Shown here piece by piece: positions 12,739 to 43,653 of a stretch of DNA of 44,661 bases. Below the pieces are notes generated by a model. That model ran no database searches. It was given only the letters and a program-made list of their open reading frames with translations, and was not told where the DNA came from. Every line of letters begins with the position of its first letter. The stretch's first letter is position 1. A program made the translations under genes and the position numbers. This stretch comes from a virus (taxonomy: Duplodnaviria > Heunggongvirae > Uroviricota > Caudoviricetes): the IMG/VR virus record IMGVR_UViG_2654587540_000005. One strand, 5' to 3'.

Positions 12739-13017
12739 ATGCAACTTACAAGTACTCGCAAGAAAGCGAATGCAATTACAAGCAACATCCTGAATCGAAT
12801 TGCTGTACGTGGTCAGCGAAAGGTTGCCGACGCGTTAGGGATTAATGAATCGCAAATTTCGCGATGGAAAGATAGCTTCATCCCCAAAATGGGAATGCTT
12901 CTGGCTGTTCTTGAATGGGGTGTTGAAGACGAGGAGTTGGCGGAACTGGCTAAGAAAGTAGCCAGAATGCTGACAAAAGAAAAAGCCCCGAAGAACGGCG
13001 AATTCTTCGAGGCCTGA
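12739..13017 (+). CDS. cII: CII transcriptional activator
   Basis: ATG at 12739 with an AAGGA RBS. Matches lambda CII (…SQISRWK…[14 protein letters not shown]…). Confidence 0.85.
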
Positions 13018-13051: not shown

Positions 13052-13198
13052 ATGACAAAACAACTCAGTCCTTACCAGGACAAAATTCACAAACACATAC
13101 TACGTGATCGCTTCCTGTCCAGCTTCAAGCAACCTGGTCGATTCCGGGCTGAGTTGGAAAAAGTGAAGCTGATGCAGAAGGAGAAAGGTCATGAGTAA
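13052..13198 (+). CDS. Small ORF between cII and the replication gene
   Basis: 48-codon ATG ORF ([15 protein letters not shown]...) ending just inside the O-like gene start. Below the ORF-track cutoff; function unknown. Confidence 0.3.
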
Positions 13199-14051
13199 TA
13201 TTGCAACCGTAACACATTTAAGGCCTTCACAACGGCCTGTGGAGCGTCGTGTGGCAGAAGTTGAAGATGGTTATACCCGTCTTGCAAATGCCCTGTATGA
13301 AGAGCTTATCGGCGCAGATTTAACGAAAAATCAGAGCAAGGTTGCCCACGCCATATGCCGTAAAACATACGGCTACGGTAAAAAGATGGATCGCATCTCT
13401 GATAGTCAGTTAGCTCAAATTACCAGGCTGCCAAGACAGAAGGTAAACAAGGCCAAGAATGAGCTTATCGCGATGAAGGTTATCCTTCGCGAAGGCCAGC
13501 AAATCGGGCCTAACAAGAACATCGAGGAATGGCAAATAGAAGGGTGTCACTACTCTGGTGATAATGTCACTGCATTGGTGACAAAAAGTGTCACCAAAAC
13601 GGTGACAGCGCTGTCACCAAAACAGGGACACACAAAAGAAACTATTACAAAAGAAAAAAGAAATAATAAAAACACTATGTCCGAAAGTGTTCGGACGGAG
13701 TGTGAAAAATCACCTGACCATCACGAAGAAACCGACAAGGCATTCGAGGAAATATTCTGGTGTGCGGGCATGCGGAAAGCCGGGAAGAAAAACGCAGCTT
13801 CAGCATTCAGAACACAGTTCAGGGAATGGCGTAAAACTACCAGGGGTACGGCAAGCGAGTTTGCCACGATGCTGGCAGAAGACATCGCATGCAGGAATGG
13901 TAAGCAGTTCGGATTCGACAGGTTGTTACCATCGAGCTACCTGAACGGTCAGCGCTGGAACGACGAGAAGCCAGAAACCATTCAACCACAATCCAAACCA
14001 TCATCCGCAATCACCGTATCGAAAACTGGCTACGTGTTTTTCGACAGGTGA
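13191..14051 (+). CDS. O: Replication initiator, lambda O-like N-terminal domain
   Basis: N-terminus matches the lambda O DNA-binding domain ([42 protein letters not shown]...) and contains iterons; the C-terminal half differs from lambda O. Confidence 0.8.
13565..13618. repeat. Origin iterons inside the O-like gene
   Basis: Five copies of GGTGACA/TGTCACC at roughly 12-bp spacing (13565..13618), followed by an AT-rich tract (13626..13680), as at ori-lambda. Confidence 0.6.
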
Positions 14052-14158
14052 ACCATGAAATCAAAAATCAAATCGCTACTGGTCGCTGGTTATAACCACG
14101 GCTGGTTAAGTATTTCGTTTGTCGATTTCTGGTTTAAAAATCTCAATCTGAGGGAATC

Positions 14159-16039
14159 ATGAGGCCAAGTGAACTTAGCGACCTGCTTTGGGCGCAGGTT
14201 GACAGGGTGGCTCCGCACCTGTTGCCAAATGGCAAGAAAGAGGGGCATGAGTGGGTTGCCGGTAACGTCAACGGTGACAAGGGAAACAGCCTTAAGGTCA
14301 ACCTTAGCGGCAAGAAAAAATGGGCTGATTTCGCTGAGGGAGACGGCGGTGACATGCTTGATTTGTGGATGGCATGTCGTGGAATTAACCTGCATCAGGC
14401 TATGCAGGAAGCGAAAGCATTTCTCGGTATCAAGGATGACGATCACCATTTCGATGCCAGACGTGAGAAGAAATTCTCCAGACCTGATCGCAAGAAAATC
14501 GCCCGCTACGTTACCAGAACAGAATCCCATCTTGAGTACCTGCAATCGCGTGGCATATCGCCAGAAGTCGTAAAGCGCTACGAGGTTGTCAGCGGCAAGG
14601 TGTGGAATGGAGAACGAGAACTGGATGCTCTGGTGCTTCCGTACAAACGCGATGGTGAGTTGTTGCAGGTCAAGCGAATCAGCACTGAGCGCCCGGACGG
14701 GAAGAAAGTCATTATGGCAGAAGGTGATTGCGAACCTTGTCTGTTCGGATGGCAGGCTCTGGACGCTGGCGTGAGGGCGGTTGTACTTTGCGAAGGCGAA
14801 ATTGATTGTATGAGCTATGCGCAATATGGCATCTCGGCGTTATCCGTGCCGTTTGGTGGCGGGAAAGGAGCTAAACAGCAGTGGATTGAGTTTGAGTATC
14901 ACAACCTCGACAGGTTTGAGGAAATATTCATCTCGATGGACGTTGATGATGTTGGTCGTGAAGCCGCAAGGGAAATCGCAAGCCGACTCGGTGAACATCG
15001 TTGCCGTCTTGTTACTCTGCCGTACAAAGACATCAACGAATGCCTGATGAACGGTGTTACCGAGGATGAAATCTGGCAGTACATCGGCACGGCATCCTAC
15101 TTCGATCCTGAAGAACTCTACAGCGCGCGAGAGTTTTACCAGGACACTATCAACGCTTTCTACGGCAAGCAGCAGTATCTGTTTAATCCACCGTGGGAAT
15201 CTCTGGCAGATAAATTCCAGTTCCGTGAGGCCGAGTTGACGCTGGTCAATGGTGTGAACGGTCACGGAAAAACGGAGGTTGTCGGGCATATGGCACTTGA
15301 GGCAATGCGTCAGGGTGTGAAGACGTGCATCGCGTCACTTGAGCTGAAGCCTGGTATTCTCCTTAAGCGCCTTACCCGTCAGGCGACGTGCTGCAAGATG
15401 CCGCCAGTGCTGGAAATTGACTCTGCATTTAAATTTTATGACGAAAGACTTTGGGTGTTTGGCCTGACCGGAACGGCGAAAGCCGACAGGCTGATCGAAA
15501 TATTCGACTACGCTCGCCGCCGATACGGCATCCAGTTATTCATTATCGACAGCCTGATGAAATGTGGCATAGGCGACGATGACTATAACGGGCAGAAGGC
15601 GTTTGTTGACTCGATTTGCGACTTCAAAAACAAAACAAACTCCCACGTCATTCTCGTTACTCACTCGCGAAAAGGAGACAGCGAAGAAAAACCAACCGGG
15701 AAAATGGACGTAAAAGGCTCTGGAGCGATAACAGACCTGACAGACAACCTTTTCATCATCTGGCGTAACAAGGCTCGCGAGAGAGCGTTACAGAGAGTTC
15801 AGAGTGGTGAAAAGATGTCAGAGAAGGACGAACAGCTACTGGCATCTCCGGCATCTGTTTTGATGCTTGAAAAACAACGTAACGGTGAAGGTTGGGAAGG
15901 TGGTGTCCCGTTGTTCCTTGACGAGCAATCGCACCAGTTCCTGCAACTTGAATCAGGATCGCCATATAGCTACATCGCCAATATGCCGAAATCGGAATAT
16001 GACGAGGCGTGGCGACAGGAAAACGTGACAGAGTATTAA
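14159..16039 (+). CDS. Bifunctional Toprim primase / RecA-fold helicase
   Basis: 626 aa with ATG at 14159 and a GAGGGA RBS. Toprim signatures (VVLCEGEIDCMSYAQYG, ISMDVDDVGREAA), Walker A GVNGHGKT and Walker B LFIIDSL. Confidence 0.75.
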   Translation: MRPSELSDLLWAQVDRVAPHLLPNGKKEGHEWVAGNVNGDKGNSLKVNLSGKKKWADFAEGDGGDMLDLWMACRGINLHQAMQEAKAFLGIKDDDHHFDARREKKFSRPDRKKIARYVTRTESHLEYLQSRGISPEVVKRYEVVSGKVWNGERELDALVLPYKRDGELLQVKRISTERPDGKKVIMAEGDCEPCLFGWQALDAGVRAVVLCEGEIDCMSYAQYGISALSVPFGGGKGAKQQWIEFEYHNLDRFEEIFISMDVDDVGREAAREIASRLGEHRCRLVTLPYKDINECLMNGVTEDEIWQYIGTASYFDPEELYSAREFYQDTINAFYGKQQYLFNPPWESLADKFQFREAELTLVNGVNGHGKTEVVGHMALEAMRQGVKTCIASLELKPGILLKRLTRQATCCKMPPVLEIDSAFKFYDERLWVFGLTGTAKADRLIEIFDYARRRYGIQLFIIDSLMKCGIGDDDYNGQKAFVDSICDFKNKTNSHVILVTHSRKGDSEEKPTGKMDVKGSGAITDLTDNLFIIWRNKARERALQRVQSGEKMSEKDEQLLASPASVLMLEKQRNGEGWEGGVPLFLDEQSHQFLQLESGSPYSYIANMPKSEYDEAWRQENVTEY

Positions 16040-16068: not shown

Positions 16069-16100
16069 AGGCCTGCTGGTAATCGCAGGCCTTTTTATTT
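16069..16100 (+). terminator. Rho-independent terminator after the replication genes
   Basis: Stem AGGCCTGC/GCAGGCCT followed by a T-run. Confidence 0.5.
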
Positions 16101-16116
16101 GGGGGAGAGGGAAGTC

Positions 16117-16557
16117 ATGAAAAAACTAACCTTTGAAATTCGATCTCCAGCACATCAGCAAAACGCTATTCACGCAGTACAGCAAATCCTTCCAGACCCA
16201 ACCAAACCAATCGTAGTAACCATTCAGGAACGCAACCGCAGCTTAGACCAAAACAGGAAGCTATGGGCTTGCCTTGGTGACGTCTCTCGTCAGGTTGAAT
16301 GGCATGGTCGCTGGCTGGATGCAGAAAGCTGGAAGTGTGTGTTTACCGCAGCATTAAAGCAGCAGGATGTTGTTCCTAACCTTGCCGGGAATGGCTTTGT
16401 GGTAATAGGCCAGTCAACCAGCAGGATGCGTGTAGGCGAATTTGCGGAGCTATTAGAGCTTATACAGGCATTCGGTACAGAGCGTGGCGTTAAGTGGTCA
16501 GACGAAGCGAGACTGGCTCTGGAGTGGAAAGCGAGATGGGGAGATCGGGCTGCATGA
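16117..16557 (+). CDS. ninB: NinB recombination protein
   Basis: ATG at 16117 (the ORF track begins at a TTG at 16099). Protein MKKLTFEIRSPAHQQNAIHAVQQILPDPTKP... is lambda NinB-like. Confidence 0.85.
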   Translation: MKKLTFEIRSPAHQQNAIHAVQQILPDPTKPIVVTIQERNRSLDQNRKLWACLGDVSRQVEWHGRWLDAESWKCVFTAALKQQDVVPNLAGNGFVVIGQSTSRMRVGEFAELLELIQAFGTERGVKWSDEARLALEWKARWGDRAA

Positions 16558-17081
16558 CTATCAAATCAAATACGCCAGCACACGACAAGGACTGCTGGCA
16601 AACGCCGCTTTGGCTTTTTGATGCACTGGATATTGAGTTTGGATTCTGGCTGGATTCGGCAGCGAGCGACAAAAATGCTCTGTGTGCTCACTGGCTAACT
16701 GAGGCCGACGACGCGCTCAATTCTGAGTGGGTAAGCCACGGTGCAATCTGGAATAACCCACCGTACAGCAATATCAGGCCGTGGGTGGAAAAAGCCGCTG
16801 AGCAGTGCATACAACAGCGACAGACGGTAGTGATGCTTGTGCCAGAGGATATGTCAGTCGGATGGTTCAGCAAGGCTCTGGAGAGTGTCGACGAAGTTCG
16901 CATTATCACTGATGGACGGATTAATTTTATCGAACCATCGACGGGGCTGGAGAAGAAGGGAAACAGCAAAGGCTCCATGCTGCTGATTTGGCGACCGTTC
17001 ATCAGTCCTCGACGGATGTTTACTACTGTATCCAAAGCGGCATTGATGGCGATCGGGCAGGGCGTCAGGAGGTACGAATGA
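16554..17081 (+). CDS. DNA N6-adenine methyltransferase (phage Dam-like)
   Basis: ATG at 16554 overlaps the ninB stop. Catalytic NPPY motif (IWNNPPYS) in a Dam-family context. Confidence 0.8.
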
Positions 17082-38829: not shown

Positions 38830-38834
38830 AGTTG

Positions 38835-38897
38835 AAGCCCCAACTGCGGGAACAGTCAGGGCTTCGGTATCAACAAATCGGATTAGGAAATATTGAC
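38835..38897 (-). ncRNA. sar: Putative sar antisense RNA (arc-ant intercistronic region)
   Basis: By analogy with P22 immI. A minus-strand hairpin (GAAGCCC...GGGCTTC) followed by a U-rich tract sits opposite the ant RBS; the ends are not defined. Confidence 0.35.
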
Positions 38898-43578: not shown

Positions 43579-43653
43579 TGGTGTCCCCTGCAGGAATCGA
43601 ACCTGCAATTAGCCCTTAGGAGGGGCTCGTTATATCCATTTAACTAAGAGGAC
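43579..43653 (-). tRNA. argW: tRNA-Arg (anticodon CCU)
   Basis: 75-nt minus-strand cloverleaf: 7-bp acceptor stem (GTCCTCT/AGGGGAC), anticodon stem AGCCC/GGGCT with loop CUCCUAA giving anticodon CCU, T-arm GGTTCGATTCC, 3' ACCA. Confidence 0.9.

Follow-up and report, generated by a model that had tools for sequence, protein, structure and literature searches.

We analyzed a 44,661-nucleotide (nt) stretch of DNA from a Caudoviricetes virus (IMG/VR record IMGVR_UViG_2654587540_000005), here called the window, and describe the replication module at positions 13191-16039. The module is of the type found in phages ES18, epsilon34, Sf101, and mEp043 and belongs to a lambdoid (P22-like) prophage; it is real, common, and already known. 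It encodes an initiator related to lambda O (called O below) with the origin inside its own gene, a 35 amino acid (aa) protein, and a 626 aa protein that we predict to be a primase-helicase. We consider it likely that O recruits this phage-encoded helicase-primase in place of the route through P and host DnaB. The window contains genes for CI, Cro, and CII upstream of the module and NinB downstream; the module therefore occupies the place of the replication genes in an early-right operon of lambdoid type. No gene for a P-type loader was found between cII and ninB, as a sequence-only reading of this DNA had noted. The three genes are:

13191-14051, + strand: O-like initiator gene, 286 aa (Phage_rep_O, TIGR01610)
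14055-14162, + strand: 35-codon open reading frame (ORF) plus stop (PHROG 21848)
14159-16039, + strand: primase-helicase gene, 626 aa (PHROG 239, PDB 5ikn, Foldseek)

The module is regarded as known because of earlier annotation and near-identity to described phages. The ES18 GenBank record (2005) has a gpO-like gp59, an internal rep_origin "similar to lambda ori", gp60, which is the 35 aa gene, and a putative primase/helicase similar to T7 gene 4. A paper on epsilon34 covers the same region (PMC2629481), and a 2023 paper counts it as the third type of replication module in P22-like phages (PMC10307801). At the nucleotide level the window module is 98.7% identical to Sf101 and mEp043 and 88% identical to ES18. 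The gene order is shared with ES18 (genes 59-60-61), epsilon34 (genes 50-52), Sf101, mEp043, and Stx phage 24B ("O"/"P"), and ES18-group phages have in common the O C-terminal half, the 35 aa gene, the primase-helicase, and the origin inside the O gene, with 88-98.7% nucleotide identity. All three genes agree in synteny and identity with the ES18-type module, including in 80 IMG/VR loci. The module occurs in 298 of 5,426 complete Escherichia coli genomes (~5%) and in Stx2 phages, and the protein clusters of the primase-helicase have thousands of members. With annotation dating from 2005 and this distribution, the discovery value is small. The additions made here are modest: a parsing of the iterons with a co-variation test, evidence for the small ORF as a true gene, a motif in the tail of O, and the loss of zinc ligands from the primase-helicase.

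The initiator and the origin within its gene

The features of the N-terminal part of O and of the origin are:

13248-13532, + strand: N-terminal origin-binding (winged-helix-like) domain of O, aa 20-114 (Pfam match, AlphaFold2 (AF2) model, identity to lambda-type O)
13545-13630, no strand: four 19-bp dyad-symmetric iterons (13545-63, 13565-83, 13589-607, 13612-30)
13631-13674, no strand: AT-rich tract, probable DNA unwinding element (24% GC, lambda homology)
13672-13703, no strand: inverted repeat with 14-nt arms, just right of the AT-rich tract

The N-terminal domain is of the lambda O type, as had been proposed from the letters of the DNA. Pfam Phage_rep_O matches aa 20-114 (E 1.2e-37, 128.8 bits, cut-off 28.7), TIGR01610 matches O with 105.3 bits (cut-off 45.5), and residues 1-159 have 48% identity to phage 434/lambda-type O (E 6e-43). 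The N-domain of P22 gp18 is 45% identical to that of the window protein, and the O proteins of Sf101 and mEp043 are 98-99% identical to it. The AF2 model of O has a mean predicted local distance difference test score (pLDDT) of 59. Its N-domain (aa 21-107, pLDDT 60-79) consists of four helices and then two short strands. A disordered linker (aa 115-175), encoded by the origin DNA, leads to a helical C-domain that is modeled with confidence (aa 179-258, pLDDT 80-87); the tail beyond it is of low confidence. A Foldseek search of the model against PDB returned nothing at E<0.1, with weak winged-helix regulators only and none for the C-domain, and O has no sequence relative in PDB.

The origin contains four iterons with the pattern TGTCAC-N6-RGKGAYA, spaced by 20, 24, and 23 bp in the lambda layout. 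The sequence-only reading had described five GGTGACA/TGTCACC heptamers at about 12-bp spacing, starting at 13565. The iterons are real and lie within the O coding sequence, but only four exact heptamers are present (13577, 13589, 13601, and 13612); these are half-sites (arms) of the 19-bp dyads, which are the better parsing, and the earlier range left out the first iteron at 13545. The pattern is unique to the origin within the 44.6 kb window, and shuffled sequences gave zero matches (0 expected by chance). The first iteron is 354 nt into the O gene; in phage 434, the corresponding distance to the annotated iterons, which are of the lambda type, is 348 nt. The two best iterons read TGTCACC-AAAAC-GGTGACA, and the lambda equivalent is ATCCCTC-AAAAC-GAGGGA.

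We compared iterons and N-domains across 85 loci, each encoding a relative of the primase-helicase. The window iteron pattern is present in 23 of 23 loci with the window-type N-domain and in 0 of the 62 remaining loci; lambda iterons are found in eight loci with a lambda-type N-domain, ES18 among them. Because they co-vary with the N-domain type, we predict that the dyad repeats are the cognate sites of the O N-domain, and this co-variation is the strongest evidence for it. Two further GGTGACA heptamers, at 14273 and 14348, are isolated half-sites with no dyad partner and were treated as chance occurrences.

The AT-rich tract had also been placed inside the O coding sequence by the earlier reading, which agrees with its position and its 24% GC content, a value that also holds for 13625-13674. 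It contains CACAAAAGAnACTAnTACAAAAGAAAA, which is common to the phage 434/lambda origin and ES18, and the tract is recognizably homologous to the AT-rich region of lambda. The inverted repeat to its right was considered as a helicase-loading site and rejected; its exact core occurs in close relatives only and is altered in 24B-type alleles, so that its role is doubtful.

The primase-helicase

We predict three domains in the 626 aa protein:

14228-14434, + strand: DnaG-type zinc-ribbon-like domain without zinc ligands, aa 24-92 (TIGR01391)
14783-15046, + strand: Toprim catalytic core, aa 209-296 (Toprim_2, E 3e-12)
15221-15940, + strand: superfamily 4 (SF4) RecA-type helicase domain, aa 355-594 (AAA_25, DnaB_C, T7 gp4 alignment)

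The protein matches PHROG 239, "DNA primase/helicase" (E 2.6e-171), and a phmmer search matched it to T7 gp4 (PDB 5ikn, E 2.7e-23) over aa 192-539, with both the primase and the helicase covered; Twinkle was also matched. Domain searches gave matches to Toprim_2 (47 bits, cut-off 22), AAA_25 (28 bits, cut-off 27), and, below its cut-off of 27, DnaB_C (23.8 bits). The N-terminal region matches TIGR01391 dnaG (E 1.5e-9, aa 26-143), with Pfam Zn_ribbon_DnaG below its cut-off (E 0.11). In the AF2 model the primase part has a pLDDT of 80-93, and the best folds found by Foldseek in PDB are human Twinkle (2e-22), T7 gp4 (5e-22), and the Aquifex DnaG zinc-binding and polymerase domains (5e-13). The helicase fold is thus matched both by sequence and by predicted structure, which bears out the earlier suggestion of a Toprim primase joined to a helicase with Walker A and B motifs.

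The predicted catalytic residues of the Toprim domain, E212, D261, D263, and D291, align with E157, D207, D209, and D237 of T7 gp4 and are invariant across the family. Helicase motifs include Walker A (GHGKT, K371), Walker B (FIIDS, D464), H3 (THS, H502), and H4. K371, D464, H502, and R574 are invariant in relatives down to 60% identity; R574, assigned by inspection only, is likely the arginine finger. By sequence and predicted fold, the protein is a T7-gp4/Twinkle-type SF4 primase-helicase with predicted activity.

A 968 aa allele of the primase-helicase is found in Stx phage 24B, where it is annotated "P" (L002 2996-5902), and also in L062 and L063 4001-6907. It contains a 342 aa intein (Hint and LAGLIDADG) exactly in the Walker A loop (GHGK|T), and the window allele is intein-free.

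The O tail, the 35 aa protein, and proposed recruitment of the helicase

Two features of the C-terminal half of O are relevant to recruitment:

13725-13964, + strand: helical C-terminal domain of O, aa 179-258 (FxxIFWxAGMRKxGKK...YLNGQRWND; AF2)
14004-14048, + strand: C-terminal tail of O, aa 272-286, a proposed docking peptide

The helical C-domain has no Pfam or PDB match. The last 127 residues of O have no significant similarity to lambda O (BLASTP E 0.6), in keeping with the earlier statement that this half differs from its lambda counterpart. A likeness of the tail to the lambda O C-terminus was hinted at by a MAFFT alignment, was not significant by BLASTP, and was dropped.

The 3′ part of the O gene always accompanies the primase-helicase, and the N-domains and iterons are swapped. 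By megablast, Stx2 phages (24B, Min27, and others) match the window only from about 13667 onward, a span that includes the O C-terminal half, the small ORF, and the primase-helicase. The initiator of 24B has a different N-domain, of the HTH_36 class, that is also seen in other loci; 24B differs as well in that its helicase P-loop contains the intein. For ES18 and epsilon34 the match starts at about 13618; they differ from the window in having an N-domain of lambda specificity and lambda iterons, whereas the window module has its own iteron specificity (TGTCAC-N6-GGTGACA). This arrangement, in which a specificity module (N-domain and iterons) is combined with a partner module, is the one classically described for lambda.

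The sequence-only reading had assigned recruitment of the primase-helicase to the C-terminal half of O. The constant association of the 3′ part of the gene with the helicase agrees with this, but the whole C-half as a helicase-specific domain was rejected. The helical core also occurs in initiators of Vibrio phages with no downstream primase-helicase, and paired initiators carry unrelated C-domains. Initiators with unrelated C-domains upstream of the small ORF and helicase include those of L032, L036, and L050 (MPEGF…DWxRALNTWLRNA type), those of L043, L051, and L060, and the 322-340 aa Fraca type. The Vibrio phages are PVA1 and D59 (L006 3096-3998, L007 3129-3923), which encode HTH_36-type initiators with the core FEIFWQAGMRK…YLNQKRWNDE; each is followed by a 173-213 aa protein with no Pfam match in place of the primase-helicase.

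The element kept with the primase-helicase is a C-terminal tail of about 12 residues and not the whole C-half. At least six unrelated initiator architectures encoded upstream of the primase-helicase have kept this tail (…VSKxGYVFFDR). In one clade the motif is [IV]T[VI]S-x-x-G[YL]V[FY]φ(DR), and in the Fraca-type clade it is DGSAEVFI[NS]QAAIDR[LM]KRG, also given as DGSAEVFINQAAIDR. It survives divergence, as in KVSKGGYVFL, IQVSQSGYVFIN, and TVSNGLVFF. We infer from this conservation that the tail may be a helicase docking element.

The variation of the 35-codon ORF among loci shows a conserved gene that is subject to purifying selection. The protein matches PHROG 21848, the ES18 gp60 family (E 4e-26). 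The ORF is called in 73 of the 80 IMG/VR loci, and in 71 it is immediately upstream of the primase-helicase, with stop and start codons adjacent or overlapping, which suggests coupled translation. In the window it starts 3 nt past the O stop, behind a Shine-Dalgarno-like AGGTGA, and its TGA shares ATGA with the ATG of the 626 aa gene, an overlap that the earlier reading had recorded. That reading had left it as a leader peptide or an artifact. Because its length is conserved (46 distinct nucleotide variants, every one 35 codons) and its uncorrected ratio of nonsynonymous to synonymous differences (pN/pS) is about 0.3-0.5, with synonymous divergence of up to 0.9, we regard it as a real gene and neither of these. 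The pattern MKxxIKxLLIAGYNHGxLxxxFVxxxFxxxxLR is held where the helicase is only 60% identical (phages Fraca and CharmingMan). PGAP (RefSeq) annotation omits the gene in the E. coli chromosomes examined.

A Rosetta-stone search of 1.84 billion representatives for fusions of the 35 aa protein gave five matches, two of them to large repeat proteins that are spurious. P0245, a metagenomic representative of 131 aa, is an apparent fusion of an O C-domain fragment (tail side) to the 35 aa protein; it is most likely a frameshift in the tail-coding region and not a true fusion. In L034 (3510-4004) and also in L055, a 164 aa HNH-type homing-endonuclease-like ORF is found between the 35 aa gene and the primase-helicase, at the ATGA junction.

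In the mechanism that we favor, dimers of O would bind the iterons via the N-terminal winged-helix domain and destabilize the AT-rich tract, as at ori-lambda. O would recruit the phage ring helicase-primase to the melted DNA, most likely via the conserved C-terminal tail, with the 35 aa protein as a possible co-factor in recruitment. A helicase of this class would load itself on single-stranded DNA and make its own primers, so host DnaB, DnaC, and probably DnaG may be dispensable; DNA polymerase III, single-stranded DNA-binding protein, and gyrase of the host would still be used. T7 gp4 self-loads by ring opening. Self-loading is also reported for Twinkle in bioRxiv 10.1101/2022.08.11.503323. 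Independence from DnaB and DnaC, which is inference only, would probably extend to the replication of Stx2 phages and P22-like prophages.

More tentatively, the O tail of about 12 residues and the 35 aa protein may form a portable two-part adaptor that recruits the helicase. Such an adaptor would account for the presence of at least six unrelated initiator architectures upstream of the same helicase. If it exists, any origin-binding protein that gained the tail could use the helicase, which would be a minimal recruitment system without a dedicated loader. The idea would be inexpensive to test and gives a way to study how a helicase of the gp4/Twinkle type reaches a defined origin.

The 35 aa protein could instead be the true adaptor or loader, a minimal analogue of lambda P that bridges the O tail and the helicase with no direct contact between O and the helicase. 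We regard this as possible but doubtful. The position of the gene, its fixed length under purifying selection, and a linkage to the helicase that is tighter than that of any initiator domain are in its favor. However, two loci (L045 and L047) encode a 69%-identical primase-helicase and an O with a degenerate tail (…YGNYYYIER) and have no small ORF, and relatives at 43% identity (L083-L087) also have none.

A further alternative is that host DnaB stays the replicative helicase, by a route left unspecified, and that the primase-helicase is accessory (in restart, late replication, or counter-defense). Among 314 lambdoid phages, 34 encode an O homologue only and must use the host helicase somehow (PMC12315714). 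For the window module we think this very unlikely; the primase-helicase is in the exact slot of P or gene 12, its start codon shares bases with the stop of the small ORF downstream of O, and hundreds of genomes have kept the module as a unit.

Several points weigh against recruitment of a self-priming helicase by the O tail. The AF2 helicase domain of the 626 aa protein is of low confidence (pLDDT 35-70). In every family member aligned, aa 26-70 contain no Cys and one His, which indicates loss of the zinc ligands, and the Cys4 zinc-binding domain of the T7 gp4/Twinkle class was not found in the protein. The zinc finger of T7 gp4 and plant Twinkle is reported to direct template recognition, and human Twinkle, with a diverged N-terminal domain, is described in PMC9860392 as having no primase activity. 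Because the zinc-ribbon-like domain has no zinc ligands, primase activity is not assured. Conservation of the tail could have another cause, such as oligomerization or proteolysis. The tail, the small ORF, and the helicase are also encoded side by side, and simple linkage accounts for some of their co-occurrence. No biochemical study or experiment on the module turned up in the literature searched.

The 626 aa protein might instead be a helicase only, its primase dead through decay of the zinc ribbon, with priming by host DnaG or by transcription. The family-wide absence of Cys and the precedent of human Twinkle both point this way. We nevertheless judge it improbable: the four Toprim residues and the motifs EGEID and KDINEC do not vary among relatives of 60-100% identity and argue for a functional primase despite the zinc-less ribbon, and the DnaB N-terminal domain, the established recruiter of DnaG, is missing from the protein. 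The loss of the zinc site resembles that in animal Twinkle, though the Toprim catalytic residues stay invariant.

Related systems and genomic context

The module is like lambda O/P and ori-lambda in its N-domain, in having four dyad iterons of about 19 bp at the same position in the gene, and in its homologous AT-rich tract. It differs in the unrelated C-half of O. In lambda, P delivers host DnaB, whereas the window module has no P and would bring a helicase-primase; neither a C-domain homologous to that of lambda O nor a paired P-type loader was found in it.

In P22 (genes 18/12), an O-type initiator is likewise followed by a phage-encoded helicase in place of P, with orf48/DUF2740 upstream. 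The P22 helicase, gp12, is of the DnaB type, has no primase domain, and works with host DnaG (Wickner 1984, as cited in PMC8022706). The window protein differs from gp12 in being a gp4/Twinkle-type fusion. T7 gp4 and mitochondrial Twinkle have the zinc-ribbon-like, Toprim, and SF4 helicase parts in one chain, as the window protein does, with matching catalytic motifs. The window protein differs from T7 gp4 by the loss of all four zinc ligands, and it is paired with an iteron-binding initiator, whereas T7 starts replication by transcription from promoters.

The IncQ plasmid RSF1010 encodes an iteron-binding initiator together with an SF4 hexameric helicase and a primase of its own (RepC/RepA/RepB′), and its replication is independent of host DnaA, DnaB, DnaC, and DnaG. 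It differs in that these are separate proteins of unrelated sequence families and the origin is outside the initiator gene. The proposed mechanism would functionally resemble that of P22 genes 18/12 and would be closer to RSF1010 RepC/RepA/RepB′, the closest functional analogue.

Two features flank the module:

13052-13198, + strand: 48 aa DUF2740 gene, a homologue of P22 orf48 (Pfam DUF2740, E 8.9e-29)
16069-16092, + strand: terminator-like hairpin with T-run, directly past the primase-helicase gene

The DUF2740 gene, the O-like gene, the 35-codon ORF, and the 626 aa gene follow one another closely packed, all on the + strand. The end of the DUF2740 gene overlaps the O start by 8 nt, and in P22 orf48 has the same placing upstream of the initiator gene. 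PHROGs and RefSeq label this gene "tail protein", although it belongs to the replication operon and runs into the start of O; the label appears to be an annotation error.

A strong terminator-like hairpin (14 pairs and a T-run) is found at 12983-13015 on the - strand, antisense to the 3′ end of cII. Its position is that of the lambda/P22 oop terminator, and it has no Rfam family match. An Rfam search of the module region found no RNA family, and promoter-like sites in the region were not above shuffle expectation. Elsewhere in the window are a sar antisense RNA (71.6 bits, 38830-38896, - strand) and a tRNA gene (43582-43653, - strand). Together they point to an immI region like that of P22 and, probably, to a prophage end near a tRNA, and both fit a P22-like prophage. 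Downstream of the module, ninB (16099-16557) shares its last 64 nt with the called ORF for a Dam-like methyltransferase (16494-17081), which begins with GTG at 16494; the true start of this ORF is probably an internal ATG.

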